Positions 1 through 14,084 of a stretch of 14,084 nt of DNA are shown here, piece by piece (within the stretch, counting starts at the first letter, position 1; each line of letters begins with the position of its first letter). The notes below the pieces were generated by a model. The model was not told the DNA's origin, searched no databases, and saw nothing but the letters and a program-made list of their open reading frames with translations. Both the position numbers and the translations under genes were made by a program. Source of the DNA: a virus. Lineage: Duplodnaviria > Heunggongvirae > Uroviricota > Caudoviricetes. The stretch covers positions 1 to 14,084 of the IMG/VR virus record IMGVR_UViG_2541047837_000006; one strand, written 5' to 3'.

Positions 1-288
1 TCAATGGTTGGCGTCATTATCTTTTTCTCTTTCTGAACGTGAATATTGCGGTGGACGGTTCATCAGCTGTGGGGCAAGACGTTTTGCCACCTGAAGAATA
101 ACCACCACCGCAGCGGGAAGCATGAGCAAAACACCGAGAAAAATCATCAGAATCTGCACTTCTGGCCGAGAAAATGGCTCAGGCAGCGACAGGGAGTCGC
201 TTACCGACAGCAGCGCCACCGCCAGTAGCATCATTCCGATAAATTCCAGTATCAACACGCCTTTAGGCAATTTACCGATCGCGCGCAT
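1..288 (-). CDS. ybjC: Small inner-membrane protein YbjC (DUF1418 family)
   Basis: 95-aa ORF with hydrophobic segments; translation matches my recollection of E. coli YbjC; divergent from grxA as in E. coli. Confidence 0.8.
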   Translation of the reverse strand: MRAIGKLPKGVLILEFIGMMLLAVALLSVSDSLSLPEPFSRPEVQILMIFLGVLLMLPAAVVVILQVAKRLAPQLMNRPPQYSRSEREKDNDANH

Positions 289-447
289 ACGCTTCCCTCT
301 GCAAAGTGAGCCTTCAGTCTAAAACTTTTCACTGTATTGTGTTTAACAGTTATAGCTTTTAGCAATTAATGCAACAGGTTAAACCTACTTTCAGCGAATA
401 CATTTTAGCGTGATCATTACAGGCATAAATCTATGAGGAGAGAAATA

Positions 448-705
448 ATGCAAACCGTTATTTTTGGTCGTTCGGGTTGCCCTTACTGTGTGCGTGCAAA
501 AGATCTGGCTGAGAAATTGAGCAATGAACGCGATGATTTTCAGTATCAGTATGTAGATATTCGTGCGGAAGGGATCACTAAAGAAGATCTACAACAAAAG
601 GCAGGTAAACCCGTAGAAACCGTGCCGCAGATTTTTGTCGATCAGCAACATATCGGCGGCTATACCGATTTTGCTGCATGGGTGAAAGAAAATCTGGACG
701 CCTGA
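448..705 (+). CDS. grxA: Glutaredoxin 1
   Basis: Translation MQTVIFGRSGCPYCVRAKDLAEKL carries the CPYC active-site motif. Start chosen at ATG 448 (SD-like GAGGAGAG at 436-443) rather than the in-frame ATG at 433. Confidence 0.93.
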   Translation: MQTVIFGRSGCPYCVRAKDLAEKLSNERDDFQYQYVDIRAEGITKEDLQQKAGKPVETVPQIFVDQQHIGGYTDFAAWVKENLDA

Positions 706-714
706 TCGTCTGAC

Positions 715-747
715 AAGCCCTCGCGTTGAGGGCTTTACTGATTTTTT
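715..747. terminator. Putative bidirectional terminator between convergent grxA and ybjM
   Basis: Stem agccctc (716-722) / gagggct (728-734) with 5-nt loop, followed by T-run 742-747; lies between two convergent stop codons. Confidence 0.45.
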
Positions 748-1112
748 CTGTGCTGTGGTTTAAACAAACTACTGATAAATAAGAAACACAGTGCCCCCAG
801 CGCACACCAGAACACCGCGCTTAGTAACCATGCCAGCTCTTGCCAGAATGAGCGCGTCGGTGAAAAAAACAGCCGCATAATGAGCATCGAACAGGGTGCC
901 GCCAGCATTGCGCCAAACAGAGGTTTCAGGACTTCTCTACGCTGTGAAAAGAAGCTGGCGACTGCTCCAGGAAGAATGAAAAATAGCAAGCCGATTTCAG
1001 GATGCCCGGCAGCCCGAAAAGCGCCTTTCATGTGCGTCGCCAGAAAAAGGCACACCACAATGAAGAGGACAAAACAGCAGATTGCCCCCGCCCAACGTTG
1101 TTTATGTTTCAC
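735..1112 (-). CDS. ybjM: Inner-membrane protein YbjM
   Basis: 125-aa strongly hydrophobic ORF; translation and position next to grxA and ybjL match E. coli YbjM as I recall it. Confidence 0.8.
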   Translation of the reverse strand: MKHKQRWAGAICCFVLFIVVCLFLATHMKGAFRAAGHPEIGLLFFILPGAVASFFSQRREVLKPLFGAMLAAPCSMLIMRLFFSPTRSFWQELAWLLSAVFWCALGALCFLFISSLFKPQHRKNQ

Positions 1113-1381
1113 TCGTTCCTCCTGACACTGCGTCTATCGAACACATTTTTCGCCAGTGTGGCGTTCAGTAAGATAAAGCCGCTTCGCATTCCATGCTAAT
1201 ATAGGCCAACGCAATTCATATAGCCGTTGATACCTAATGTGATTACACTAGTAAAATATATTGTTGCTTTACTATCGTTTAGGTGCGCTGAATGAATCTG
1301 CGCCCTGAATTCTGGTAAAAAACATTATCGTAAATTACCATTTCTTTCAACAGCTTACTAGTAAACAAGAAGTTAGCCTCC

Positions 1382-3067
1382 GTGAATATAAACGTCGCCG
1401 AATTGTTAAATGGGAATTACATTCTGTTATTATTTGTGGTCCTCGCGCTTGGGCTATGTCTCGGAAAGTTACGACTTGGTTCGATCCAACTGGGTAATTC
1501 CATTGGCGTTTTAGTCGTATCGCTGTTATTAGGCCAACAACATTTCAGCATTAACACCGATGCGCTTAATCTTGGCTTTATGCTGTTTATTTTCTGCGTC
1601 GGGGTCGAAGCCGGACCGAACTTTTTTTCCATTTTTTTTCGCGATGGGAAAAATTACCTAATGTTAGCACTGGTGATGGTTGGCAGTGCGCTGGTGATCG
1701 CCTTAGGGTTAGGTAAGCTGTTTGGCTGGGATATTGGCCTGACGGCCGGTATGTTAGCAGGCTCTATGACGTCGACACCGGTTCTGGTCGGTGCTGGCGA
1801 TACACTGCGTCATTCCGGCATGGAAAGCAGGCAGCTCTCACTGGCACTGGATAATCTGAGCCTCGGGTATGCCTTAACCTATTTAATCGGTCTGGTGAGT
1901 TTGATTGTTGGTGCGCGTTACTTGCCGAAATTGCAGCATCAGGACTTACAGACCAGCGCCCAGCAAATCGCCCGCGAACGTGGCCTGGACACTGATGCCA
2001 ACCGTAAGGTTTATTTACCGGTGATCCGCGCCTATCGCGTCGGCCCGGAACTGGTGGCCTGGACCGACGGCAAAAATCTGCGTGAACTGGGTATTTATCG
2101 ACAAACCGGCTGCTACATTGAACGTATTCGACGTAACGGGATTCTGGCAAATCCAGACGGTGATGCCGTGCTACAAATGGGCGATGAAATAGCGTTGGTA
2201 GGCTATCCCGACGCCCATGCCCGACTCGATCCCAGCTTCCGTAACGGTAAAGAAGTTTTCGATCGTGACCTTCTCGACATGCGTATCGTCACTGAAGAAG
2301 TGGTCGTTAAAAACCATAACGCTGTAGGTAAACGTCTCGCACAACTGAAGTTGACCGATCACGGTTGCTTCCTTAACCGCGTCATTCGTAGCCAGATTGA
2401 GATGCCGATAGATGACAACGTCGTGCTTAACAAAGGTGACGTTTTACAAGTCAGCGGCGATGCCCGCCGCGTAAAAACCATCGCCGATCGCATCGGCTTT
2501 ATCTCGATTCACAGCCAGGTCACTGACCTGCTGGCATTCTGCGCCTTCTTTGTTATTGGGCTGATGATCGGGATGATCACCTTCCAGTTCAGCACATTCA
2601 GTTTCGGCATGGGGAACGCTGCCGGGTTGTTATTCGCCGGAATTATGCTGGGCTTTATGCGTGCTAACCACCCGACCTTCGGTTACATTCCGCAGGGTGC
2701 ATTAAGCATGGTGAAAGAGTTCGGCTTGATGGTGTTTATGGCAGGCGTTGGTCTGAGCGCCGGTAGCGGTATTAATAACGGCCTGGGCGCGATTGGCGGT
2801 CAGATGTTGATTGCCGGATTGATTGTCAGTCTGGTGCCCGTGGTTATCTGTTTCTTGTTCGGTGCTTATGTATTGCGAATGAACCGCGCGCTGTTGTTCG
2901 GCGCAATGATGGGCGCACGTACCTGCGCGCCGGCAATGGAGATCATCAGTGATACAGCTCGCAGTAACATCCCGGCGCTGGGCTATGCGGGCACCTATGC
3001 AATCGCCAACGTCCTGCTGACGCTGGCAGGGACAATCATCGTCATGGTATGGCCAGGATTAGGATAA
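1382..3067 (+). CDS. ybjL: Putative AAE-family transporter YbjL (membrane domains flanking cytoplasmic TrkA-C-like domains)
   Basis: 561-aa ORF with GTG start at 1382; hydrophobic N- and C-terminal blocks around a soluble central region; translation [20 protein letters not shown] matches YbjL. Confidence 0.88.
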
Positions 3068-3179
3068 AACTGAAGTTGCCCTGAAAATGAAATTTTTTTG
3101 CACAACCGCAGAACTTTTCCGCAGGGCATCAGTCTTAATTAGTGCCACTGCTTTTCTTTGATGTCCCCATTTTGTGGAG

Positions 3180-3222
3180 CCCATCAACCCCGCCATTTCG
3201 GTTCAAGGTTGATGGGTTTTTT
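3180..3222 (+). terminator. Rho-independent terminator downstream of ybjL
   Basis: Stem cccatcaacc (3180-3189) / ggttgatggg (3207-3216) followed by TTTTTT (3217-3222). Confidence 0.55.
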
Positions 3223-3302
3223 GTTGCCTGAAATTTATACCGTTTAAAATCATGATGTTAGAAGAACTGTTTTTTAACGATGGCGACAAAATGGCGGCAG
3301 CG

Positions 3303-3521
3303 TCAAAGAGAGAGCGCCACCTGCCCTGATTTCATTGGATGCGGCTGAACCGGATTTGACTCTTTTGGCGTTGCAATCGAACGAACAAAAGTTTCATGAG
3401 TAACAAAAGTATGGCTGCAGTTAATGTTCTGGCACTGGTTGTAACGCTCTTTGGTCAATGAAGATACCTGAAAACTGCTGCGAGTATGGGCGGCACTTCC
3501 ACACAGTGGGCAAATCATCAT
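3303..3521 (-). CDS. ogr: Ogr/Delta-family zinc-finger late transcription activator
   Basis: 72-aa product from ATG at 3521 (SD-like GGGGAGAA upstream); C-x2-C-x22-C-x4-C motif (CPLC ... CQNINC). The ORF is open to a GTG at 3554, so the start is uncertain. Confidence 0.85.
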   Translation of the reverse strand: MMICPLCGSAAHTRSSFQVSSLTKERYNQCQNINCSHTFVTHETFVRSIATPKESNPVQPHPMKSGQVALSL

Positions 3522-3611
3522 TTTTCGAGTTCTCCCCATTTTTGCTAAATTCACAATAATGATACCGCATTATCCCATTTTGCAAACTTAAAAGTTCTCC
3601 ATTGCGAAGAA

Positions 3612-4880
3612 TCATTCCATTTCGAAATCATCAATCCTCACTTCAAGCTCCAGACTGGTCGTAAAACCATTATCCGGGCTGACGGTATGTGTCAGAGTCG
3701 TAATGGTCCATTCCGCATCATCTATCGGCTGTTTAAAGCCACTGACTTTCACTGGCATTTCCGTGTAGAGATCTGCCCGCCCTTCCGCCAGTTGTAGCGA
3801 GAATGACGCAACGCCGCGTTGCAGGCGTTCCCACTGCATTTTCGCCGCTCGTTCAGCGTTGCCCCGGTTGGCATAAGTACGATTAAGTACCAGCACGTTT
3901 TCATCCGTACCCACCAGGTAATCGCCCTGCTTCGCTTCCGGCTCTTTCTTCTGCTTTGCGGTCCTGCGCTTACGCTTCACCGTGGTGCTTTCTTTCTTCG
4001 CGGGTTCGCGGGTATGCAACCAGCTGGCAATTACGCCCGTGTAAGATCCGCGATCTGCCAGGGTAAAGCGGTGACTGTCGCCGTCCTTACGTGTGATAGT
4101 GATCACCGGCAGTGGTTTACCGCTGGCGCTTTTACCCTGTCCCTGCCGAATGAATAACAGATTGCCATTTTTCACCGACGCAATAGCACCGTACTGGCGC
4201 GCCAGCCGCATCAGAAAACTGCCGTCACTCTCATTAGTCTGGTCTATATGTTCCACGGGTTTATCTGACAGGTCTTTACCCAGTGCCATCTTCAGCTTGT
4301 GACGCGCGGCTATTTCCTTCACCACTTCCCCAACTGTGGTCTTGTGCCACGATTTTTCACGGCGGGTATTCAGCGTTTCCCGAAAATCAGCACTTCGCGC
4401 CCGGACACCGTCCACAATTTCCACCATGTTGATAAGGTCCACTTCGTAGAGCACCTCACCATTGATGGTCAGCTTCGCGTAGCTGTTGGTACTGGTCACT
4501 TTGGTGGTGTTGCTTTCGCCCGTCTTCCACTCGCCGGAATCCACTTCTTTGTGACGTCCACGCACCACAAGCTCCACGGCCTGCACTTCCCCGGTATCGT
4601 CACGCTGGATAGAGCCGGTAAAGCGCAGCTGGATGCCATCCACCGTAGCTTTGCCCATCTGCTTAAACAGCAGCAGCTCAGTACCGCCAATGGAAAATTC
4701 AGTATCCAGTGCGCCGTCATCCAGTCCCAGATCCACATCCACCGCCCCCGGCATACCGCCGCCGCGATACTTCTCATATTTGCGGGTGAATTTCGGCAGC
4801 GTCAGCGACTCTACGATCCCCTGCCAGTTGTTCCCGTCGTTAAACAGGTTCAGATGTTTTAATTTACGTGGTAAAGCCAT
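3612..4880 (-). CDS. Chimeric ORF: tail tube FII-like N-terminus (~155 aa) fused in frame to tail protein D-like C-terminus (~265 aa); probable deletion product
   Basis: N-terminus MALPRKLKHLNLFNDG resembles P2 FII tail tube; C-terminus resembles the gpD family and sits directly upstream of ogr as D does in P2. The genes expected between FII and D (E, E', T, U) are absent. Confidence 0.65.
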   Translation of the reverse strand: MALPRKLKHLNLFNDGNNWQGIVESLTLPKFTRKYEKYRGGGMPGAVDVDLGLDDGALDTEFSIGGTELLLFKQMGKATVDGIQLRFTGSIQRDDTGEVQAVELVVRGRHKEVDSGEWKTGESNTTKVTSTNSYAKLTINGEVLYEVDLINMVEIVDGVRARSADFRETLNTRREKSWHKTTVGEVVKEIAARHKLKMALGKDLSDKPVEHIDQTNESDGSFLMRLARQYGAIASVKNGNLLFIRQGQGKSASGKPLPVITITRKDGDSHRFTLADRGSYTGVIASWLHTREPAKKESTTVKRKRRTAKQKKEPEAKQGDYLVGTDENVLVLNRTYANRGNAERAAKMQWERLQRGVASFSLQLAEGRADLYTEMPVKVSGFKQPIDDAEWTITTLTHTVSPDNGFTTSLELEVRIDDFEME

Positions 4881-4889
4881 GTTGCCCCC

Positions 4890-6062
4890 TTACGCGCTTA
4901 CCTGGCTGGAGAAATTCACCAGGTACTGATCGGTGATGCGCTGACGCAGCATCAGGTTTTCAAGTGGCGGTACTGGCGTGTAGTCGTAATCGATGGTGAG
5001 TTTTCCGGCTTTCAGCGTGTCTTTATCGTTCACCGACTCGTCCAGCCAGCAATCACCACCAATGAGATAGCCCTGACTGACCAGGCTGCGCATTTTGGCG
5101 CGAATACCTTCGATAATGTCGCGGGCCAGCGACGGGTTCAGCGGTTTGTCCACCGCCCACATATGCGCTTCTGCCATCGTGTCCATCAGTACCTGCGCCG
5201 TGCGGGTGTAGTTTTCGAAGGCAAAGAGCGGGTCATCACTCAGGCAGCGGGAACCCCAGAAGCGGAAACCGTCTTTGCGGATAAGCGTGGTGACGTCGTT
5301 CTGGTTAAGCAGTCCCGCATCGGTTGCCGGGTCCTGCAGATCCCAGAACACATCAGCAGAAATTCCGGTGACACCGTTCACGCCTACGTTGGACAGGCTC
5401 TTGTGCCACCCGGTCTGCTCATCAATTTTGGCGCGCAGACCGAGCGCACGGGCGGTGGCATATGCCGTTGCTTCGGCATTCAGCACCGTGTCCCAGCCAG
5501 TAAAGTCAGGCCAGATCAGCATCCCTTCGCGCTGACTGAAGTTTTCACGGTAAGTGATCGCCTCCTGCACTGTCTTGCAGCCATACGCTGACAGGTAAGC
5601 AAACCCGCGCAGGCTTTGCGCCACACTCAGCAGCTCAGTCGCAACGGCTTTGTTATCGTGACCCGGCACGCCGAGAATGCGCGGTTTAACGCCGAGCTGT
5701 GACTGGGCAGATAACAGGGCTTTCATACCTGTTTTTTTACCCTCGGCGGTCACTGCGCCAATGATATTGGTTGTGGTTTCTTCTTCCGTTTCACCCTGCG
5801 GCACACGCACAACAACGGTCACGGGTTTTGCCTGGTCAGCGATGGCATCCAGCGAACGGGCCAGCGTGCCGGACTCACCCGCTTTACCGCTGGCAGTCAG
5901 CACATCAGTGATCAGCACGGGTTTATTAAGAGGAAACATTTTTGCATCGGCATCATCGCCCGTGCAGACCATGCCCACGATGGCGGTGCTCACCGTGGTA
6001 ATGGATCGGGTGCCTTCGTTGACTTCAACAACGCGCACTCCGTGGTGGTAATCCTGAGCCAT
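4890..6062 (-). CDS. FI: Contractile tail sheath protein FI
   Basis: 390-aa product; N-terminus [19 protein letters not shown] and C-terminal region [13 protein letters not shown] match P2 FI as I recall it; immediately upstream of the FII-like ORF. Confidence 0.9.
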
Positions 6063-6084
6063 AAGGCAGTCTCTCCGGTTGTAG

Positions 6085-6160
6085 AGGGGGTCTGCCTATG
6101 TTCTGGTTGATACGCGCAGGGTGCACGCGATGGGGATTGTATGGGAAATGGCACAACAGC
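6085..6160 (-). promoter_or_regulatory. Putative Ogr-dependent late promoter pF (dyad TGT-N12-ACA at 6138-6155)
   Basis: TGT (6138-6140), 12-nt spacer, ACA (6153-6155); dyad centre about 85 nt upstream of the FI ATG, consistent with a -55 activator site and ~30-nt leader. Confidence 0.5.
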
Positions 6161-6275
6161 GCCATGAGGGCTTTTCATAAAATAATCAATATATCTCAAT
6201 ATGTATTGATTATTATACGCAAATCTATTTTACTATTGCGCATCTGTCATCCATTTAAATCAGATTGAATACTAT

Positions 6276-7307
6276 ATGAAAAGAGATATTTCTTTAGACC
6301 TGTTACGTATTATTTGTTGTATTTTTGTAATAGGAATTCATGTCACGCCCGACTATGCTTATACTGTTACCAGTAACCAAACAGAAAGTATACAAATACA
6401 AACTCTTTTTGCACAATCAATTGTACGCATTGGTTTACCAATATTCTTTATGTTAAGTGGATACTACCTACTCAACAGACAAAATAGCACTCCACTTTTG
6501 TTTTATAAAAAAAGAATCCCCGCCATTATTATCCCTTTTGTAATATATTCATTAGCACATTACTATATTATTAGCTGGAATAATGGAACGTCATCGAATT
6601 TACTTGAATATTTCTCATTAATATCTAAAAGCACTATTTCACTCTCTGTGCATTTCTGGTTTGTTTATGCCTTTATCGGTTTGTATTTAACCGCTCCAGC
6701 AATTCAATACATAGTCAATAAAATCCCACAAGCCGACAGCCTTAAGGTGATTATAGTTTTGGCTTTCATTTTTTATTATTCATTATACTCATACTCTCTA
6801 AGCCAATCCTCTCAATACTACCATCATTTAATCCCATTACAGAGCATAGATACATGGGTTTTATATTTTGTTGTCGGCGGATTATTAAAAAGAGTTGACA
6901 TTAAAACACATTATATTGTATATAGCATCCCTTTTATATTTTTACTACATGTGATGTTTGTTTATTTTAGCGTTAACAAATATAACTTTAACATATACCC
7001 ATTTGACTCAGGGATTAATATGTTGTTAATGTGTTCCTTGATAGTAATTGCATTTACAAAAATAAACATCAATAATAAAAAAATAATTTTAATCATTGAA
7101 AAAATAGCACCTCTGACATACGGAATTTATTTAATTCATGTTTGTGTTTTCAGAGTCTTAGAGAAATATTTCAATATTCCTTTTATCGTGGACAACATTT
7201 TACTAAAAACAACATCCCTGTCTTTAGTCATTTTTTTTATCAGCCTTGGTTTAAGCTTGATTATTGATCGGTTGTTTGTTAATCCAATTCTCAGACTGAA
7301 TCGTTAA
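6276..7307 (+). CDS. Acyltransferase-3 family integral membrane protein (Oac/OafA-like acyltransferase); prophage cargo gene
   Basis: 343 aa, highly hydrophobic with multiple predicted TM segments; N-terminal LDLLRIICCIFVIGIHV resembles the family signature; strongly AT-rich; occupies the position of Z/fun in P2. Confidence 0.72.
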   Translation: MKRDISLDLLRIICCIFVIGIHVTPDYAYTVTSNQTESIQIQTLFAQSIVRIGLPIFFMLSGYYLLNRQNSTPLLFYKKRIPAIIIPFVIYSLAHYYIISWNNGTSSNLLEYFSLISKSTISLSVHFWFVYAFIGLYLTAPAIQYIVNKIPQADSLKVIIVLAFIFYYSLYSYSLSQSSQYYHHLIPLQSIDTWVLYFVVGGLLKRVDIKTHYIVYSIPFIFLLHVMFVYFSVNKYNFNIYPFDSGINMLLMCSLIVIAFTKININNKKIILIIEKIAPLTYGIYLIHVCVFRVLEKYFNIPFIVDNILLKTTSLSLVIFFISLGLSLIIDRLFVNPILRLNR

Positions 7308-7767
7308 ATGGCTTAGTCGGAAAGGCTGTATCAGAGGCTTTTGATGGATCAATAGCCTCTAATGCTTCAATATAATCAAGCCATATGTTATACATTTCCA
7401 GTTCAGTAGCATTCAGTCTCCCAAGCAATGCTTTCCCCTGCCATTGTTTGTTATTTATATAATTTACAGCTTCTATTATACGTGCTTGTTTTTCAGTTTT
7501 TGCTTTAGCCACTAACTCTGTATATGTGAGTGGTGGCGTATCAATCCATGCAGGCATACCATTATCATCTGCCCCAAGAATTTTTCCTTCCGGAGGTTGT
7601 TTCATGAATTCACAAGCAGTCTCATTTGAAATATCCACCCCTTCCTTAGGCCACATTCCATTTCTTTCATATTCATTTTTTAATATATACGCCATAAATC
7701 TGGCATTTACCTTATCCCATATGAAATCATAAGAAGAATCATGTTGATAATCATCACAACTTTTCAT
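7291..7767 (-). CDS. Tail fibre assembly chaperone (Tfa / gpG-like)
   Basis: 158-aa ORF starting 2 nt after the H stop; soluble protein with a C-terminal region resembling Tfa proteins; AT-rich like the 3' end of H. Confidence 0.6.
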   Translation of the reverse strand: MKSCDDYQHDSSYDFIWDKVNARFMAYILKNEYERNGMWPKEGVDISNETACEFMKQPPEGKILGADDNGMPAWIDTPPLTYTELVAKAKTEKQARIIEAVNYINNKQWQGKALLGRLNATELEMYNIWLDYIEALEAIDPSKASDTAFPTKPFNDSV

Positions 7768-7769
7768 AT

Positions 7770-9209
7770 TTAATATCCAAATGCAATAAATACAGCGCCT
7801 GAAACTTTTGAATCACTGCTGGTTCCTGATGTCAAACAAGTTACAGCAGTAAACCCATCATTATATATACTTTCGCACGACGTAACGACTTGTGCATATG
7901 TCATTTTTGTGACAAACACACCCCATACTCCGTTAGGGAATGGCGTTGGATATGTAATAGGAAGCTGTTGTGGAATACCAATAGTTGTACTATTAGGAAG
8001 ATTTCTTCGAAATATTTGTATAATTAAACCATTCGGACCTTTAACCAACAAATTATCGCTTCCTTTTCCTGTTAGCTGAAAATAGCTCATGTCAGGGATT
8101 TCATAACTATTAGCATTACCAACATTTCTACCTGCCGCATTTCCCAAATGCCCTAAACCAAGATAAGTAAGAATTCCTTCTATATCCTTTCCACTCAAAT
8201 TAGTCAGCGTATTATCCAGCGGTTGTTTGCCTGCCAGCGCATTAAGCATTGTCGTGGCAAAGTTCGGGTCATTCCCCAGCGCCGCCGCCAGTTCGTTCAG
8301 TGTATCCAGTGCCGCAGGTGCAGACCCCACCATTGCTGCAATTGCCGATTTCACAAAAGCTGTAGTGGCAATCTGTGTATTGTTGACCGACTGCGCCGCC
8401 GTGGGGGCTGTTGGCGTTCCGGTGAGTGCCGGACTCGACAACGGTGCTTTTAGTGCCAGCACATTGTTAATGGTGGTACTGAAATTCGGATCATTGTTAA
8501 TGGCTGCGGCTATTTCTTTCAGCGTGTCCAGCGTGGCTGGCGCACCATTAATAAGGGCCGTCAGTGCCGCCTGAACAAACGCAGTGGTCGCAACCTGCGT
8601 GGTATTATTCCCCGCCGCTGGCGTTGGCGCTTTGGGGGTTCCGGTAAACGTCGGACTTTCTTTGGGTGCATACTGTGAATGTGGGTCCTGTGCGGCAAGG
8701 TGTTTTGCCATCAGGTCATCCACATACACCTTCAGCTCCAGTACCTTGTCATCCACATACTTGCGGGTTGCCAGCACTACAGCAGGATCGATTTTCAGGG
8801 TGATATTTTCCGTGCTGCTGGTAATCAGCACCATGCGCACGGTCTGGGTGCGCCCGCTGCCTTCAGCCAGTTGCGGCTTATAGCTTTCCGGGCAGTTGCC
8901 CACGGCAATCAATGCCCCGGACTCATCAAACAGGCCCACTTCACGTATCCACCAACCTCCCTCGTTTTCAGGGATCACCTGTTCGGCAATAATCTGGCTG
9001 CTGTTCTGCGGGTCGATATAGAGCATATTCAGCGCAGCCCGGCGTTTCTCATTTACCAGTGCCGTCTGCTTTGCGTCCGGCGTTGGCAATGTTCCGCCGC
9101 CATCGCCGACCGCCATATGGGTAATTTTTAAAGGCACACCGAGCGCGGCGGCGCTGGCAAGTTTCGCCGCGCCAATATCCGTCAGCAGGGTATAAAATTT
9201 TGTGCTCAT
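7770..9209 (-). CDS. H: Tail fibre protein H with conserved N-terminus and divergent C-terminal receptor-binding region
   Basis: N-terminus MSTKFYTLLTDIGAAKLA ... MAVGDGGG ... ESYKPQLAEGSGR resembles P2 gpH; internal repeats contain the NELAAALGNDPNF motif; C-terminal ~160 aa unrelated and AT-rich. Confidence 0.85.
   Translation of the reverse strand: MSTKFYTLLTDIGAAKLASAAALGVPLKITHMAVGDGGGTLPTPDAKQTALVNEKRRAALNMLYIDPQNSSQIIAEQVIPENEGGWWIREVGLFDESGALIAVGNCPESYKPQLAEGSGRTQTVRMVLITSSTENITLKIDPAVVLATRKYVDDKVLELKVYVDDLMAKHLAAQDPHSQYAPKESPTFTGTPKAPTPAAGNNTTQVATTAFVQAALTALINGAPATLDTLKEIAAAINNDPNFSTTINNVLALKAPLSSPALTGTPTAPTAAQSVNNTQIATTAFVKSAIAAMVGSAPAALDTLNELAAALGNDPNFATTMLNALAGKQPLDNTLTNLSGKDIEGILTYLGLGHLGNAAGRNVGNANSYEIPDMSYFQLTGKGSDNLLVKGPNGLIIQIFRRNLPNSTTIGIPQQLPITYPTPFPNGVWGVFVTKMTYAQVVTSCESIYNDGFTAVTCLTSGTSSDSKVSGAVFIAFGY
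8230..8700. repeat. Diverged tandem duplication (~230 bp unit) inside tail fibre gene H
   Basis: Two protein-level repeats (ATTAFV...ALDTL.E.AAA...DPNF.TT) and corresponding DNA similarity, e.g. gttccggtgagtgccgg versus gttccggtaaacgtcgg; boundaries approximate. Confidence 0.55.
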
Positions 9210-9811
9210 GGATTCACTCTCATTGTGTCAATAACATGGACCGCCCCGCCTTCATGCGCGGTGCCGCCGGAAATAATTGTTTCGTTGATATACGGATAGA
9301 TCGTGATTTCTTCACCAAGATAGCTGGCGGCTCCCACCCAATGCGGGCCGCTGGTCTGCAGATTGATGGACATGCCGATCATGTGACGGCTACATGGTTT
9401 GGCATCGCTTATCAGCCGCTCAAGCTCCAGATAGGTATCTTCAGTGATGCCCTGGTCCTGCACACCAATGTCCAGGCGAAACGTACCCGGTGTTTCTCCG
9501 GTCTGCCACCACTCAATAATGCGGATCAGGAAGCCGAACGGCTCCACCACCCGCCGCACGGCACTGGTGGTTCCTTTATGCTGATGAATATAAAAAGCAT
9601 CCTTCACCACCTGTCGTTTGACGCTTTCCGTCCAGCCCTCGTCCCAGCGATCCACAGAGAACGCCCAGGCGAGATAAGGCAGGAAACTGATCGGACAGGT
9701 CGTTGGATTCCACAAGTCACGCAGCGGCACCTGCAGATCAGAAATCCCGCTGCAGGTTTGCGCCAGTCGGCGCTCCAGTGGCGTTGAACCCGGTGGCAGC
9801 AGACTATTCAT
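9206..9811 (-). CDS. I: Baseplate/tail protein I
   Basis: 201-aa product with the motif LRDLWNPTTCP ... LAWAFSVDRWDE ... GTFRLDIGV ... DAKPCSRHMIG resembling P2 gpI; start overlaps the preceding J' stop and its stop overlaps the H start. Confidence 0.8.
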   Translation of the reverse strand: MNSLLPPGSTPLERRLAQTCSGISDLQVPLRDLWNPTTCPISFLPYLAWAFSVDRWDEGWTESVKRQVVKDAFYIHQHKGTTSAVRRVVEPFGFLIRIIEWWQTGETPGTFRLDIGVQDQGITEDTYLELERLISDAKPCSRHMIGMSINLQTSGPHWVGAASYLGEEITIYPYINETIISGGTAHEGGAVHVIDTMRVNP

Positions 9812-10034
9812 CCGTTCCTCCGTTGGTTACGCTCCACTGCGTACATGATGCCGCCTGTGTTTTGTTCAGGACCACATCCGCCAGAGGAGAAGCCAGCTCC
9901 ACACGCTGCACACCCTCAACATGCAGGGCGGCAAAGATGGCGCTACGGCGAATATCCCGACCAAGACGCGTCTGACTGGCGATGTACTTCTGCAGGCTGG
10001 CTTTTGCCGCTGCCATTACCGGCTCTGCTTCCGG
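9804..10034 (-). pseudogene. J: Baseplate protein J, C-terminal ~70-aa fragment
   Basis: Translation AKASLQKYIASQTRLGRDIRRSAIFAALHVEGVQRVEL resembles the gpJ C-terminus; the frame is closed by a stop at 10035-10037, so the N-terminal ~230 aa are absent. Confidence 0.6.
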
Positions 10035-10375
10035 TCAGCGAACTTCGGGCTGACTTCCATAGAGGTGAATAATTTCTGGCCTTTTTTCACCAGTTCCACC
10101 AGGGACTCCGTTGGCTCAACGTCGGCATACAGCGCCATCTTGCCTGCCAGCGGACCTTCCGTGATTTCTTCAGCAAACAGCGCCGTCACCTTGCCGTAGC
10201 GGTTAAAGGTGCTGTCCGGCAGATAAGACTTGATGTGCTCAAGGTTAATCAGCGCGGTATACACCGCCGGGTTGTAGCTGGCTGCCATCTGTTCCAGCCA
10301 TTCTCGCTGGATTTCGCGTCCGTCGGTGGTGGCACCTTCCACCCCGATGCGAAAACGCTTTGCTTTCACTGTCAT
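10016..10375 (-). pseudogene. O: Capsid scaffold protein O, N-terminal ~110-aa fragment
   Basis: Translation FRIGVEGATTDGREIQ ... INLEHIK ... TSMEVSPKFA resembles the gpO N-terminus; ORF ends after 119 aa versus ~280 aa for intact O. Confidence 0.65.
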
Positions 10376-10399
10376 GAGCCGTGCTCCGTTAGAAAAAAC

Positions 10400-10475
10400 T
10401 TACTGGAGCCTTATGGTTGCGGTGATGGGGGCAGTGAAACAATGCGCGGTATTTGTACCGACAACCACACAAACC
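10400..10475 (-). promoter_or_regulatory. Putative Ogr-dependent late promoter pO (dyad TGT-N12-ACA at 10454-10471)
   Basis: TGT (10454-10456), 12-nt spacer, ACA (10469-10471); dyad centre ~87 nt upstream of the O' ATG, the same spacing as the FI dyad. Confidence 0.5.
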
Positions 10476-10517
10476 GCAGGCGGGGAAAGCCTTCATTCAA
10501 GGCTGTAGGTTTGTGCC

Positions 10518-11372
10518 ATGAACACCACACTGACACCCGCAGATCTCGATCCCCGTCGGCAGGCCATGCTGCTGTACTTTCAGGGATACCGCGTAGCCCG
10601 CATTGCTGAAATGCTGGGCGAGAAAGTTGCAACCGTTCACAGCTGGAAAAAACGCGACAAGTGGGGTGACTATGGGCCGCTGGATCAGATGCAGCTCACC
10701 ACCGCCGCACGCTACTGCCAGCTCATCATGAAGGAGCACAAAGAAGGGAAAGATTTCAAAGAGATTGACCTGCTGGCGCGCCAGTCTGAGCGCCACGCGC
10801 GGATCGGCAAGTTTAACAATGGCGGCAACGAATCCGACTTAAACCCTAACGTCGCCAACCGCAACAAAGGCCCACGCCGTCAGCCGGAAAAGAATGTTTT
10901 CACCGATGAGCAGATTGAGAAGCTGGAAGAAATCTTCCATTCCTCCATGTTCAACTACCAGCGCCACTGGTGGGAAGCCGGAAAAACCAACCGCATCCGC
11001 AACCTGCTGAAGTCACGCCAGATCGGCGCGACCTTTTACTTTGCCCGTGAAGCCCTGATTGACGCCCTGCTGACCGGACGTAACCAGATTTTCCTTTCCG
11101 CCAGCAAGGCACAGGCCCACGTCTTTAAGCAGTACATCATCGACTTCGCCAAAGAAGTGGAGGTGGAGTTGAAAGGCGATCCGATGGTGCTTCCTAACGG
11201 GGCCACGCTTTACTTCCTCGGCACCAATGCCCGCACTGCCCAGAGTTATCACGGCAACCTGTATCTGGATGAATATTTCTGGATACCGAAATTCCAGGAG
11301 CTGCGCAAAGTGGCTTCCGGTACCGCACCTGCAGCAACACGCCCGATCTCTGCGGTTGCACTCATGACGTAA
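10518..11372 (+). pseudogene. P: Terminase large subunit P, N-terminal ~268-aa fragment
   Basis: Translation ...[15 protein letters not shown] ... [12 protein letters not shown] ... [15 protein letters not shown] ... [15 protein letters not shown] resembles the gpP N-terminus; similarity ends near 11321 and the ORF stops at 11372 versus ~590 aa for intact P. Confidence 0.8.
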
Positions 11373-11662
11373 TGTGGCAGTTTCTCTTTTGCCACCTCAT
11401 TAATTGGTACGCATGGCAGGCAGTGAATCTGTGCCAGAAAACCATCTACCAACGTTGAATCTTCAGTCAGATCGGTAAGCAGCCAGATTTCTGGTGCGGT
11501 TAATAAATGAGGTTGAGCTGGGTTCAGCTTGTTCCGCAGAATCTGCACATTCATGCCCGCACGTTCTGCCAGTTGCACCAGATTGTGGCGCAGTGCGAAT
11601 GCACGACAGGCTTCATCAAAATGTGGATGTTTGGAAACTTGGTAATCAAACATGGTTTTCAA
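11249..11662 (-). pseudogene. 186 CII-like transcription activator, 3'-truncated; ORF tail runs antisense into the P fragment
   Basis: N-terminal ~105 aa with an HTH-like segment ([19 protein letters not shown]) and position downstream of the apl-like gene; the last ~30 codons are the antisense of P coding sequence. Confidence 0.5.
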
Positions 11663-11717
11663 CTCCGAACTTATCGCAAAATCGAACTCAGCGTCTTATT
11701 GCGAAAATAGACGTCTA

Positions 11718-11921
11718 TTAAGCAGACAAAGCATCAACAGTCAGAGCAGCCAGGTTAATCATTACCTTTTCACGTTTTTTGTCTTTACGAAGACGATGAC
11801 GAGGTAGTCGGCCATCAGCCAACATGTCGTTAATCGTATCAATAGAAAGGCCAGTCAGTTCGCTATAACGTTCGATTGTGACATGTGGTGTATTCAGAGT
11901 AATTGAAATGTTAGGTGTCAT
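11718..11921 (-). CDS. Apl/Cox-like small DNA-binding excisionase and switch regulator
   Basis: 67-aa basic ORF, first gene divergent from the repressor and followed by the CII-like gene, the arrangement of the 186 lytic operon; SD-like AAGGA upstream. Confidence 0.6.
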
Positions 11922-12066
11922 AAGGCAACATTCCTTCTAGATATGGCTTGTGGCGAGCCGTTGTTTGTCGTGATTAGTAGTGAAGGCTCCAAAAGAACAC
12001 TTCTGGTTCAACTTTAAGATCGCTTTTGGAATCTGTCAACGAATTTTGGATTTCTTTGGAGGACTT
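11922..12066. promoter_or_regulatory. Putative immunity switch region (lytic and lysogenic promoters with operators) between apl-like and cI-like genes
   Basis: Divergent gene starts; 8-bp perfect inverted repeat tccaaaag (11988-11995) / cttttgga (12023-12030). Promoter elements not individually resolved. Confidence 0.4.
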
Positions 12067-12636
12067 GTGGATTTCAATAGCGGCGGTAAGAAAGCCATAG
12101 AACGTTTAGTTGAAGCATATGGGTTCGGTACCCGTCAGGCTCTCTGTGATCATTTAGGTGTTTCTAAGAGCACCATGGCAACGCGCTATATGCGTGATAT
12201 TTTTCCAGCAGATTGGGTAATCCAGTGCGCCCTTGAAACGGGCACCTCGCTTAATTGGCTAACAACAGGGCATGGTTCAAAGCAAGCATCAGCAAATACA
12301 AATACTATAGAAGTAGAAAAATATTTATTGTCTGATGGAGCATTGCAGAAAGACGGTTTTTATATTTTTGATAAGGGATTTCTACCCTCTACGTTTAAAA
12401 AACCTTTTGTCATCACAGATAACAATTCTGAATTTATTTGTGATAAAGAATTTGATGATATACGTGATGGTAAATGGGTAATAAGTATTGATGGCGAAAT
12501 AACGATCCGTGACATTACTCGTTTACCCGGTGGAAGAATCTTCGTCGAGGGTGGAAACAGAGCCTTCGAATGCAAGATAGAAGACATTGAAATAATTGGT
12601 AAAATTATAAGTTTAACAGTCAAGCATGTTAAATAG
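12067..12636 (+). CDS. 186 CI-type immunity repressor (~189 aa)
   Basis: Divergent from apl and upstream of int; LVEAYGFG N-terminal region and overall length consistent with the 186 CI family. Start set at GTG 12067 (GGAGGA at 12058-12063); the ORF is open to a GTG at 11980, so the start is uncertain. Confidence 0.65.
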   Translation: MDFNSGGKKAIERLVEAYGFGTRQALCDHLGVSKSTMATRYMRDIFPADWVIQCALETGTSLNWLTTGHGSKQASANTNTIEVEKYLLSDGALQKDGFYIFDKGFLPSTFKKPFVITDNNSEFICDKEFDDIRDGKWVISIDGEITIRDITRLPGGRIFVEGGNRAFECKIEDIEIIGKIISLTVKHVK

Positions 12637-12651
12637 TACCGGGAGGAAACT

Positions 12652-12843
12652 ATGCTTGGTAAGGTATTTTTTGTGGTTTTGTCATGTTCTTTGTTATTAA
12701 ACCCACTAACTACCTATGCTAGAAATTATCCCTGCTCAGGGAAAAAGGGAGGTGTTTCTCACTGTACCTCAGATGGCAAATTCGTTTGCAATGATGGAAC
12801 TATTAGTAAATCCAAAAAAATCTGTACTAAAAACTCACGATAA
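12652..12843 (+). CDS. Small secreted or lipid-anchored Cys-rich protein (63-aa precursor) of unknown function
   Basis: Strong SD GGGAGG 6 nt upstream of the ATG; N-terminal signal peptide ([23 protein letters not shown]); basic mature part of ~40 aa with 4 Cys; 15 nt downstream of cI on the same strand; AT-rich. Confidence 0.5.
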
Positions 12844-13031
12844 CTTTTGCTTTTATATCTGCGTCTAAAATAAAAATGAGCCGCAGGTTAACCGCAAAAG
12901 TTACATGCTCACATAGCAAAAAGAATAGCCAACTTCATGATGGCTTCAGTGAGATGTATGGTCGTAGGATTTCATACATTGACACTGGTTATACATACAG
13001 TAAAAATGCTCTCTACTGGAGGGCATTTTTT

Positions 13032-14084
13032 ATGGCAGTACGAAAACTCACCACAGGGAAATGGCTTTGCGAATGTTACCCCGCCGGACGTAGTGGGCGT
13101 CGTGTGCGTAAACAATTCGCCACCAAAGGCGAAGCTCTGGCTTTTGAGCGCCACACGATGGAAGAAACCGAAGCAAAGCCCTGGCTGGGTGAATCAGTGG
13201 ATCGTCGAACACTGAAAGACGTAGTTGAGCTATGGTTCAAACTACATGGTAAATCTCTGACAGCTGGGCAGCATGTCTATGACAAATTGCTGTTGATGGT
13301 TGACGCTCTGGGTAATCCTCTTGCAACCGATCTCACCTCTAAAATGTTTGCCCACTATCGAGATAAACGCCTGACAGGCGAGATCTACTTCAGCGAGAAA
13401 TGGAAGAAAGGAGCAAGCCCGGTCACCATTAACCTGGAGCAAAGCTATCTAAGTAGTGTTTTTAGCGAACTATCCCGTCTGGGCGAATGGTCGTATCCGA
13501 ACCCACTGGAGAACATGCGAAAATTCACCATCGCAGAAAAAGAGATGGCATGGCTTACCCATGAGCAGATTGTTGAATTGCTGGCTGATTGCAAACGTCA
13601 GGACCCAATTCTGGCACTGGTAGTTAAGATATGCTTAAGCACAGGCGCACGCTGGCGTGAAGCCGTAAATCTTACCCGCTCACAGGTGACCAAATACCGA
13701 ATTACCTTTGTCAGAACGGAGGGGAAGAAAAACAGAAGCATCCCTATCAGTAAAGAGCTTTACGAAGAGATCATGGCGCTTGATGGGTTCAATTTCTTTA
13801 CAGACTACTATTTTCAATTTTTATCCGTGATGGAAAAAACGTCTATCGTGCTCCCTCGCGGTCAACTCACACACGTTCTGCGCCATACGTTTGCGGCGCA
13901 CTTCATGATGTCGGGTGGAAACATTCTCGCCTTACAAAAAATTCTCGGACACCACGATATAAAAATGACTATGCGTTACGCACATCTGGCACCAGATCAT
14001 CTGGAAACGGCGCTCCGTTTCAATCCTCTGGCAACGCTGCCAAGTGGCGACAAAGTGGCGGCAGCGGTTGGCATTACCCCGTAA
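13032..14084 (+). CDS. int: Tyrosine recombinase (phage integrase)
   Basis: Catalytic signature present: R in LSTGARWREA, H-x-x-R in HVLRHTFAAH, Y in MTMRYAHL; N-terminal MAVRKLTTGKW typical of this integrase family. The ORF is open from 12876 but the extension is AT-rich and unlike integrase N-termini. Confidence 0.9.
   Translation: MAVRKLTTGKWLCECYPAGRSGRRVRKQFATKGEALAFERHTMEETEAKPWLGESVDRRTLKDVVELWFKLHGKSLTAGQHVYDKLLLMVDALGNPLATDLTSKMFAHYRDKRLTGEIYFSEKWKKGASPVTINLEQSYLSSVFSELSRLGEWSYPNPLENMRKFTIAEKEMAWLTHEQIVELLADCKRQDPILALVVKICLSTGARWREAVNLTRSQVTKYRITFVRTEGKKNRSIPISKELYEEIMALDGFNFFTDYYFQFLSVMEKTSIVLPRGQLTHVLRHTFAAHFMMSGGNILALQKILGHHDIKMTMRYAHLAPDHLETALRFNPLATLPSGDKVAAAVGITP

Follow-up and report, generated by a model that had tools for sequence, protein, structure and literature searches.

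The DNA analysed here, in the following called the window, is a stretch of 14,084 bases that is 100% identical to the chromosome of Escherichia coli LR-64-2. Host genes (ybjC, grxA, ybjM and ybjL) occupy positions 1–3067, and a prophage starts at about 3212, runs to the end of the window and continues to rcdA, i.e. its integration site lies between ybjL and rcdA. The region 11718–12636 of this prophage contains two divergent genes, cI and apl, which are 145 bp apart. The RefSeq labels given to the genes here are ‘phage repressor protein CI’, ‘phage regulatory CII family protein’ (pseudogene), ‘ogr/Delta-like zinc finger family protein’ and ‘phage integrase’.

The cI gene (12067–12636, plus strand) begins with GTG and encodes an immunity repressor of 189 amino acids, which combines an N-terminal helix-turn-helix (HTH) with a C-terminal oligomerisation domain of the 186 CI type. 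The respective Pfam matches were Phage_CI_repr PF07022 (E 2.5e-31) and Phage_CI_C PF16452 (E 3.4e-29). The start is supported by the relatives, in which the codon at the same position is GTG, ATG or TTG. In the alignment with phage 186 CI the protein showed 33% identity over 175 aa (E 3e-38), and its sequence also matched the 186 CI structure chains 2FJR (E 1.5e-31) and 2FKD (E 1.1e-14), while the comparison with P2 C returned no significant similarity (E 0.045, 19 aa). An identical protein (WP_001346406.1) is encoded in the apparently complete prophage of strain 1283. The first-pass annotation, made from the letters of the window, had described an intact repressor of about 189 aa, and it had set alignment with the 186 CI family as a check beforehand; both the integrity of the reading frame and the predicted family were confirmed.

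The first gene of the lytic operon, apl/cox-like (11718–11921, minus strand, 67 aa), was assigned to PHROG 575 (‘Cox-like excisionase and repressor’, E 1e-29). Many peduoviruses of Klebsiella and E. coli have annotated Cox-like proteins that share 97% identity with its product, and similarity to 186 Apl and P2 Cox is marginal and confined to the N-terminus (40% over 20 aa for 186 Apl). By analogy with 186, the product is predicted to act both as excisionase and as repressor on the lytic side. Downstream of apl lies a cII remnant (about 11321–11653, minus strand) with a match to PF06892 (E 8e-38, profile positions 1–111 of 146), which PGAP lists as a pseudogene. Only the first ca. 111 of 169 codons are left; the gene is cut at about codon 112, after which its ORF runs antisense into a terminase fragment, with the joint at ca. 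11321–11327. Identity to 186 CII is 68% and is lost past about residue 113. A CII-like gene after apl had been noted from the start, and the gene is there, whereas its truncation went unnoticed, as did the fact that the prophage is a deletion remnant. The remnant sits outside 11718–12636, the interval to which the first-pass annotation had been attached.

On the lysogenic side, cI is followed by a small secreted-looking ORF of 63 aa (orf63, 12652–12843, plus strand; PHROG 6000, function unknown), which some records name ‘YdcA family protein’, and by the integrase gene (13032–14084, plus strand; PF24624 and PF00589) as the last gene of the operon. The slot between cI and int is filled by other genes in relatives, and orf63 is a cargo gene.

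A CI-family repressor of about 190 aa, a Cox/Apl-type first lytic gene and a downstream cII of the CP76 family make up a 186-type regulatory region, and all three were found, so the immunity region was correctly called 186-type (CI family, Apl/Cox-like gene, CII 68% identical to 186 CII). The P2-type arrangement of Int-C-Cox, with a C repressor of ca. 99 aa and no cII, was not found, cII being present. We therefore conclude, with good confidence, that 11718–12636 is the lysis-lysogeny switch of a 186-type module (Int-CI-Apl-CII), situated in a P2-family prophage that lies between ybjL and rcdA and has undergone heavy deletion.

The lytic promoter pR (12039–12011, minus strand) was found by consensus scan with 10 of 12 matches, and it consists of TTGACA (12039–12034), a 17-nt spacer and TAAAGT (12016–12011), pointing into apl with a predicted start near 12004. 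The lysogenic promoter pL was missed by the consensus scan, as its -10 hexamer CAACAT matches at 3 of 6 bases, and we infer its position (11904–11932, plus strand: TTGAAA at 11904–11909, 17-nt spacer, CAACAT at 11927–11932) from positional homology with the annotated pL of 186 only. Both have the -35 within apl codons 4–6 and a -10 that stops 4 nt short of the apl ATG, with 17 nt between the hexamers; the two hexamers of the putative pL are invariant in the relatives. The two promoters would face each other, with predicted starts about 64 nt apart (62 nt in 186).

Within the switch, an 8-bp inverted repeat had been put forward as a candidate operator. The repeat is exact: the left arm TCCAAAAG (11988–11995) covers about +10 to +17 of pR, the right arm CTTTTGGA (12023–12030) lies inside the pR spacer, and the arms flank the pR -10 at a distance of 35 bp from centre to centre. 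An 8-bp inverted repeat was obtained in about 10% of randomised 145-bp stretches of the same composition, and the repeat is therefore not significant by itself; its standing as a pair of candidate CI sites was instead backed by comparison. Relatives with the same CI recognition helix were collected in a scan with one genome per species, which covered Citrobacter, Scandinavium, Silvania, Enterobacter and Kosakonia. The right arm was invariant in 8/8 relatives and the left arm was kept in 7/8, with one A>G change in Kosakonia. Among the eight relatives (several genera, including Escherichia), pairwise identity was 97.8% over 12005–12039 and 94.6% over 11983–12004, to be compared with 90% for apl coding DNA, 81% for cI coding DNA and 76% for 12040–12057 upstream of the -35.

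The sequence of the repeat changes with the type of CI. A Pantoea relative, whose CI N-domain is 64% identical, has a perfect 11-bp inverted repeat of other sequence, ACCCAATTTCG/CGAAATTGGGT, at the same offsets from the -35 and -10 and likewise 35 bp from centre to centre. The position of the right arm coincides with one arm of this Pantoea repeat and with the central pR operator of 186. In phage ESSI2_ev129, TTTGGAA and TTCCAAA bracket the -10 at 27 bp. In phage 813R9 and in the B-type prophage of E. coli, Apl is 97% and 92% identical to that of the window, respectively, and its HTH stretch is the same; both differ in the CI N-domain, are without the TCCAAAAG arms and carry other dyads instead. 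The arms thus follow the CI type and not Apl.

This covariation bears directly on the alternative that the repeat is not a CI operator at all, being either a chance sequence conserved through its overlap with pR or a binding site of Apl. The chance version draws on the frequency of such repeats in randomised DNA and on the location of one arm in the promoter spacer, where it was perhaps conserved along with the promoter; pR function, however, needs neither an invariant spacer nor an invariant +10 to +17 segment. For the Apl version, it can be said that Apl/Cox arrays consist of direct repeats 10–11 bp apart (PMC7498355), that Apl-type proteins bind short repeats between pR and pL, and that TCCAAA-like copies occur on the lytic strand at multiples of about 10 bp (12060, 12050 and 12030, and weaker at 12020 and 12007). 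Yet the copies upstream of the -35 are not conserved, the Apl sites of 186 are located downstream of the pR -10 and not upstream (186 annotation), and the motif is missing altogether from phages with 92–97% identical Apl; a different CI N-domain, that of Pantoea, goes together with a different and longer repeat in the same geometry. A direct search for Apl sites gave no repeat common to the three switch types with near-identical Apl. We consider it improbable that the arms are anything other than CI sites.

Four of the five TCCAAAR sites in the 14-kb window fall within 73 bp of the switch (11988–12060), and the four copies were considered as an operator array. This was rejected, since the third copy, TCCAAAA at 12044–12050 (minus strand) upstream of the pR -35, varies (relatives have TTTTAGA, TTTAAGA or ATTCAGA), and 12054–12060 overlaps the cI Shine-Dalgarno, a sequence that the B-type switch has as well. 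The copies other than the two arms are probably incidental, and the variation of 12044–12050 suggests that this copy is not essential.

As to the kind of site, a single operator made up of the whole repeat was rejected because the arms, at 35 bp from centre to centre, are too far apart for one HTH dimer. Dyads of 16–18 bp around each arm were likewise unconvincing: CCAAAAGAACACTTCTGG has 6/9 pairs in the window and 4–5/9 in the relatives, and GATCGCTTTTGGAATC has 4/8. Read from the sequence, the partner half-sites around each arm are poor, with 3–4 of 8 symmetric positions. In 813R9, a half-site as in Pantoea makes a compact 16-bp palindrome, GTACCCAATTGGGTAC, and on this ground each arm of the window would be the good half of its own operator of about 16 bp. 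The comparison suggests that each arm is the better half of a separate ca. 16-bp CI operator, and the two arms are most likely two CI sites and not one 43-bp operator.

In 186, CI binds three operators two helical turns apart at pR (PMC3675496), and these operators reach from the start codon of cI to about +4 of pR (186 annotation; PMC3675496), covering the promoter much as the two arms do in the window. The arm spacing in the window (35 bp, or ca. 32 bp between the inferred operator centres) is unlike this three-operator spacing. Counterparts of the flanking sites FL and FR, which in 186 lie about 300 bp on either side of pR, were sought as well: no copy of the pR motif was found at the equivalent positions, and nothing convincing inside cI. 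A 14-bp palindrome at the apl stop, AATAGACGTCTATT (11706–11719), fits FR by position and was rejected, as it is only partly conserved and bears no relation to the pR motif. The ogr promoter was also searched for a CI site like that at pB of 186, and no TCCAAAR copy lies in its vicinity. Between D and ogr, the sequence departs at just 4 nt from the prophage of CFT073, which has another CI type, and direct CI control of the late activator is consequently not supported. CI control of pB is a known feature of 186 proper and may not be a defining trait of the larger group.

The cI gene itself appears to be chimeric. Over 11663 to ca. 12140, prophages such as Z1323 match the window at 91–100% identity and the E. 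coli B-type prophage at 51–75%; past about 12203 the relation is reversed, with 95–100% identity to the B-type (strain QDFD216) and ca. 60% to Z1323. The switch of identity between about 12140 and 12203 places a crossover inside cI, at approximately codons 30–45. Judged from these alignments, it is a genuine recombination joint within cI: one lineage appears to have supplied apl together with the switch DNA and the HTH part of CI, and the remaining CI portion, with orf63 and int, appears to derive from the lineage that occupies this site in E. coli B. A match covering at least 80% of the 11663–12900 query was found in 118 of 5,426 complete E. coli genomes, the sampled hits being 96.6–99.9% identical, and the cI combination is hence not a one-off. 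If cI is indeed chimeric, a crossover in the repressor gene could swap immunity specificity.

Taken together, we tentatively propose, as a possibility of well below even probability, a branch of 186 CI with an operator layout of its own, i.e. two mirror-image sites about three helical turns apart that bracket the pR -10, in combination with a chimeric cI. If this layout is true, the operator sequence changes with the CI type and the geometry stays fixed (in the window type, in Pantoea and possibly in ev129). The comparative data amount to an operator prediction for an uncharacterised immunity type of the 186 family.

By analogy with 186, the weak pL would transcribe cI, orf63 and int, and the strong pR, facing it, would transcribe apl and what remains of cII. 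CI would bind across pR, shut it off and relieve the interference on pL, by which CI would maintain its own expression. In the proposed two-site layout, the arms would be the strong half-sites of two CI operators, one in the pR spacer and one just past the start site, about three helical turns apart, and both would occlude RNA polymerase.

The LR-64-2 element is a deletion remnant of a P2-family (Peduoviridae) prophage of E. coli with at least three internal deletions. The terminase gene P has retained only its first ca. 270 codons, as the N-terminal fragment adjoining the cII remnant (10518–11327, plus strand; PF06056 and partial PF03237; PGAP pseudogene). Of the scaffold gene O, about 115 codons remain, now attached to the final 70 codons of J. 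An in-frame fusion unites the N-terminal part of FII, the tail tube gene, and the C-terminal part of D in one ORF (3612–4880, minus strand; PF04985 at residues 4–159 and PF05954 at residues 172–401; two partial pseudogenes according to PGAP), and E, E′, T and U are gone. The unbroken FII-to-D arrangement is present in CFT073, the prophage of which occupies the same site and, with the deleted segments taken into account, is 97.4% identical over window positions 1–11322, where the match ends. The missing segments are all there, and it follows that the replication, portal, capsid, lysis, DinI/Tum-like and most baseplate genes were deleted in LR-64-2. No SOS-controlled antirepressor gene (Tum, with DinI-like C-terminus) was found among the ORFs or the annotation of the window; a DinI-family gene follows the replication gene in relatives, and the absence of the antirepressor gene is due to deletion.

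With cII truncated, and with replication, the DinI/Tum-like antirepressor, head and most tail genes lost, the element can neither be induced nor produce phage. For immunity, heavy decay (three or more deletions, cII cut short, replication and head genes lost) and the weakness of the inferred pL would fit a dead relic in which cI is no longer expressed or functional and no immunity is conferred. We regard this as unlikely, because cI, apl, the intergenic switch, orf63 and int are undamaged and 99.9% identical in DNA to the corresponding segment of the apparently intact prophage of strain 1283, the deletions end exactly outside this module, and maintaining CI expression in 186 needs only pL and CI, not CII (PMC3675496, PMC7708051). 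The homoimmunity that had been anticipated for the remnant is accordingly reasonable, and by analogy with 186, CI-mediated immunity to phages of the same immunity type could remain. The same immunity type is found in apparently intact prophages, e.g. that of strain 1283, and a decayed prophage may still protect its host against a circulating phage type.

The first-pass annotation further regarded the element as a mosaic of a 186-type immunity region and a P2-type late region, told from the location of the late activator after D. The ogr/B-type late activator gene (3303–3521, minus strand; PF04606) lies at the far end of the prophage, adjoining ybjL, and its protein is identical to the CFT073 copy. 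It does directly follow the D remnant (3612–4406), and a candidate att core (3212–3225) comes next. In 186, the annotated order is D (19373–20542), pB with B (‘P2 Ogr and P4 Delta homolog’, 20609–20827) and attP (ca. 21023), after which the genome continues with orf69, int, cI, pR/pL, apl and cII; in P2 it is D, ogr, attP, int, C, cox. The late activator stands after D in both phages, as it does in the window, directly after D and beside att, and its placement says nothing on mosaicism; as a ‘P2-type’ character it fails, 186 B being in the same place.

The late proteins do not separate the two phages either. Identities to 186 and P2, respectively, were 69 and 68% for FI, 58 and 53% for FII, 52 and 52% for D, 58 and 57% for I, 68 and 70% for J, 50 and 49% for O, 63 and 63% for P, and 54 and 55% for Ogr, which places them equidistant from both (49–70% to each), and Int is nearer to 186 (54% vs 35%). 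It is true that the immunity region is 186-type, that ogr is after D, and that exchange of regulatory against structural modules is documented in P2-like phages generally (PMC3448106). Nevertheless, the character chosen does not distinguish 186 from P2, the late genes point to neither phage, and the intact relatives found at this site (CFT073, strain 1283) are organised in the same way, by which a 186/P2 mosaic becomes extremely improbable. The element belongs to a third Peduoviridae lineage with a 186-type regulatory region, a combination that is common and has been described before (PMC3448106). What is gained is a correction: the position of ogr/B after D is common to P2 and 186 and is unusable for calling mosaics. 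The regulatory regions of 186 and P2 type and their exchange are textbook matter and have been surveyed (PMC3448106), the genes are in RefSeq, and the prophage, already annotated, is an unremarkable member of a well-known class.

Among known elements, the closest are those at the same site. The prophages of CFT073 and strain 1283 have the same integration site and gene order, and they keep E, T, U, V, W, the head genes, the portal gene, the replication genes and a full cII, which are gone or truncated in the window. In strain 1283 the CI and Apl proteins are identical and the switch is 99.9% identical in DNA, while the CI of CFT073 differs, with 289 aa and two tandem HTH domains. The defective P2-like prophage of E. 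coli B/BL21 also occupies this site and is also a deletion remnant with truncated cII. It resembles the window in the 3′ two-thirds of cI, orf63 and int (88–100% in DNA) and in Apl (92%), but the switch DNA and the first ca. 45 codons of cI are 51–75% identical and the repeats are others (GTGAAC/GTTCAC), and on these grounds it is probably of a different immunity type. A literature search for descriptions of the prophage at the ybjL site or of the P2-like prophage of E. coli B yielded nothing specific.

Phage P2 shares with the window a Cox-type first lytic gene and ogr after D, and its promoters face each other, as is predicted for those of the window. Its repressor C is, in contrast, an unrelated protein of 99 aa, which binds direct repeats (PMC2995052), and P2 is without cII. 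The first-pass annotation was right in describing P2 by a 99-aa C repressor and no CII, as the P2 annotation gives both; the CI of the window shows no meaningful similarity to C, and cII is present.

The likeness to 186 (Eganvirus) extends to gene order and orientation (int-cI / pL-pR / apl-cII), the two-domain CI, the predicted facing promoters, the position of the putative pL relative to the apl start, the late activator after D and beside att, and CII, 68% identical where retained. The differences lie in an Apl that is a shorter, other Cox-like protein (PHROG 575), in the extra small ORF between cI and int, in the truncation of cII and deletion of the Tum-type antirepressor region, and in CI, which is only 33% identical and has operator sequences unrelated to those of 186, from which an immunity specificity other than that of 186 is expected.

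A recombination joint was located inside cI, the immunity repressor gene of the remnant prophage, and DNA identity comparison with relatives placed it at window positions 12150–12203. To the left of the joint, apl, the switch and the helix-turn-helix portion of CI were 91–100% identical to the lineage represented by the Z1323 prophage and by Citrobacter and Enterobacter relatives, and to the right, the remainder of cI, the downstream 63-aa ORF and int were 95–100% identical to the E. coli B-type defective prophage; on this nucleotide comparison, the position is a recombination joint. Long CI repressors occurred in relatives, as cI of the CFT073 prophage (L022, 6435–7304) encodes 289 aa with two tandem CI helix-turn-helix N-domains followed by a single C-domain. 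Long CI proteins are also annotated in Klebsiella phages 4LV2017 and ST11-VIM1phi8.4.

A hairpin GGCTTGTGGCGAGCC at 11946–11960, just 3′ of the predicted pL start and 5′ of the apl ribosome-binding site, was 95% conserved across genera and was present also in phage 813R9, and the E. coli B-type switch has a 28-bp gap at this location and lacks the hairpin. A perfect 14-bp palindrome AATAGACGTCTATT at 11706–11719 overlaps the apl stop codon, in the position held by FR, a distal CI site, in phage 186, and was reduced to the core AAACGTTT in the Citrobacter and Enterobacter relatives.

The content of the slot between cI and int varied among the relatives compared. In the window it holds the 63-aa, secreted-looking ORF (12652–12843; PHROG 6000, “YdcA family”), in Z1323 a KAP P-loop NTPase (L007, 4010–5341), in 813R9 an ATPase (L008, 2076–3498), and in CFT073 a 323-aa hypothetical protein (L022, 5451–6422). 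The slot may serve as an accessory or defence locus expressed in the lysogen.

The prophage was interrupted by three deletion joints. One has fused FII and D in frame into a single 422-aa ORF (3612–4880), another joins the J C-terminus to the O N-terminus (9804–10375), and the third joins terminase P to cII (11321–11327). Among 5,426 complete E. coli genomes, the exact remnant was found in one, the source strain itself. Close to both prophage ends, a 24-bp direct repeat (GATGGCGACAAAATGGCGGCAGCG at 3279–3302, AGTGGCGACAAAGTGGCGGCAGCG at 14043–14066) probably represents a pair of arm-type Int sites, and the candidate att core ATGGGTTTTTTGTT was identified at 3212–3225, with a second copy 75 nt past the window end.

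An Acyl_transf_3 acyltransferase gene (6276–7307, plus strand) lies between the tail-fibre assembly gene G and the sheath gene FI, on the strand opposite to both, in the position taken by Z/fun in P2. As the CFT073 prophage has this gene too, it probably serves in lysogenic conversion.

In phage 186 (L002, about 23035–23110), three CAATTG-centred elements follow one another at 33–34-bp intervals in the pR to pL direction, a spacing similar to the 35-bp geometry of the inverted-repeat arms (11988–11995 and 12023–12030) in the window switch. The D-ogr intergenic region with the ogr promoter (3522–3611), in turn, is nearly the same as that of CFT073 (L022, 36966–37055), with only 4 nt differing, despite the different CI type of the latter.
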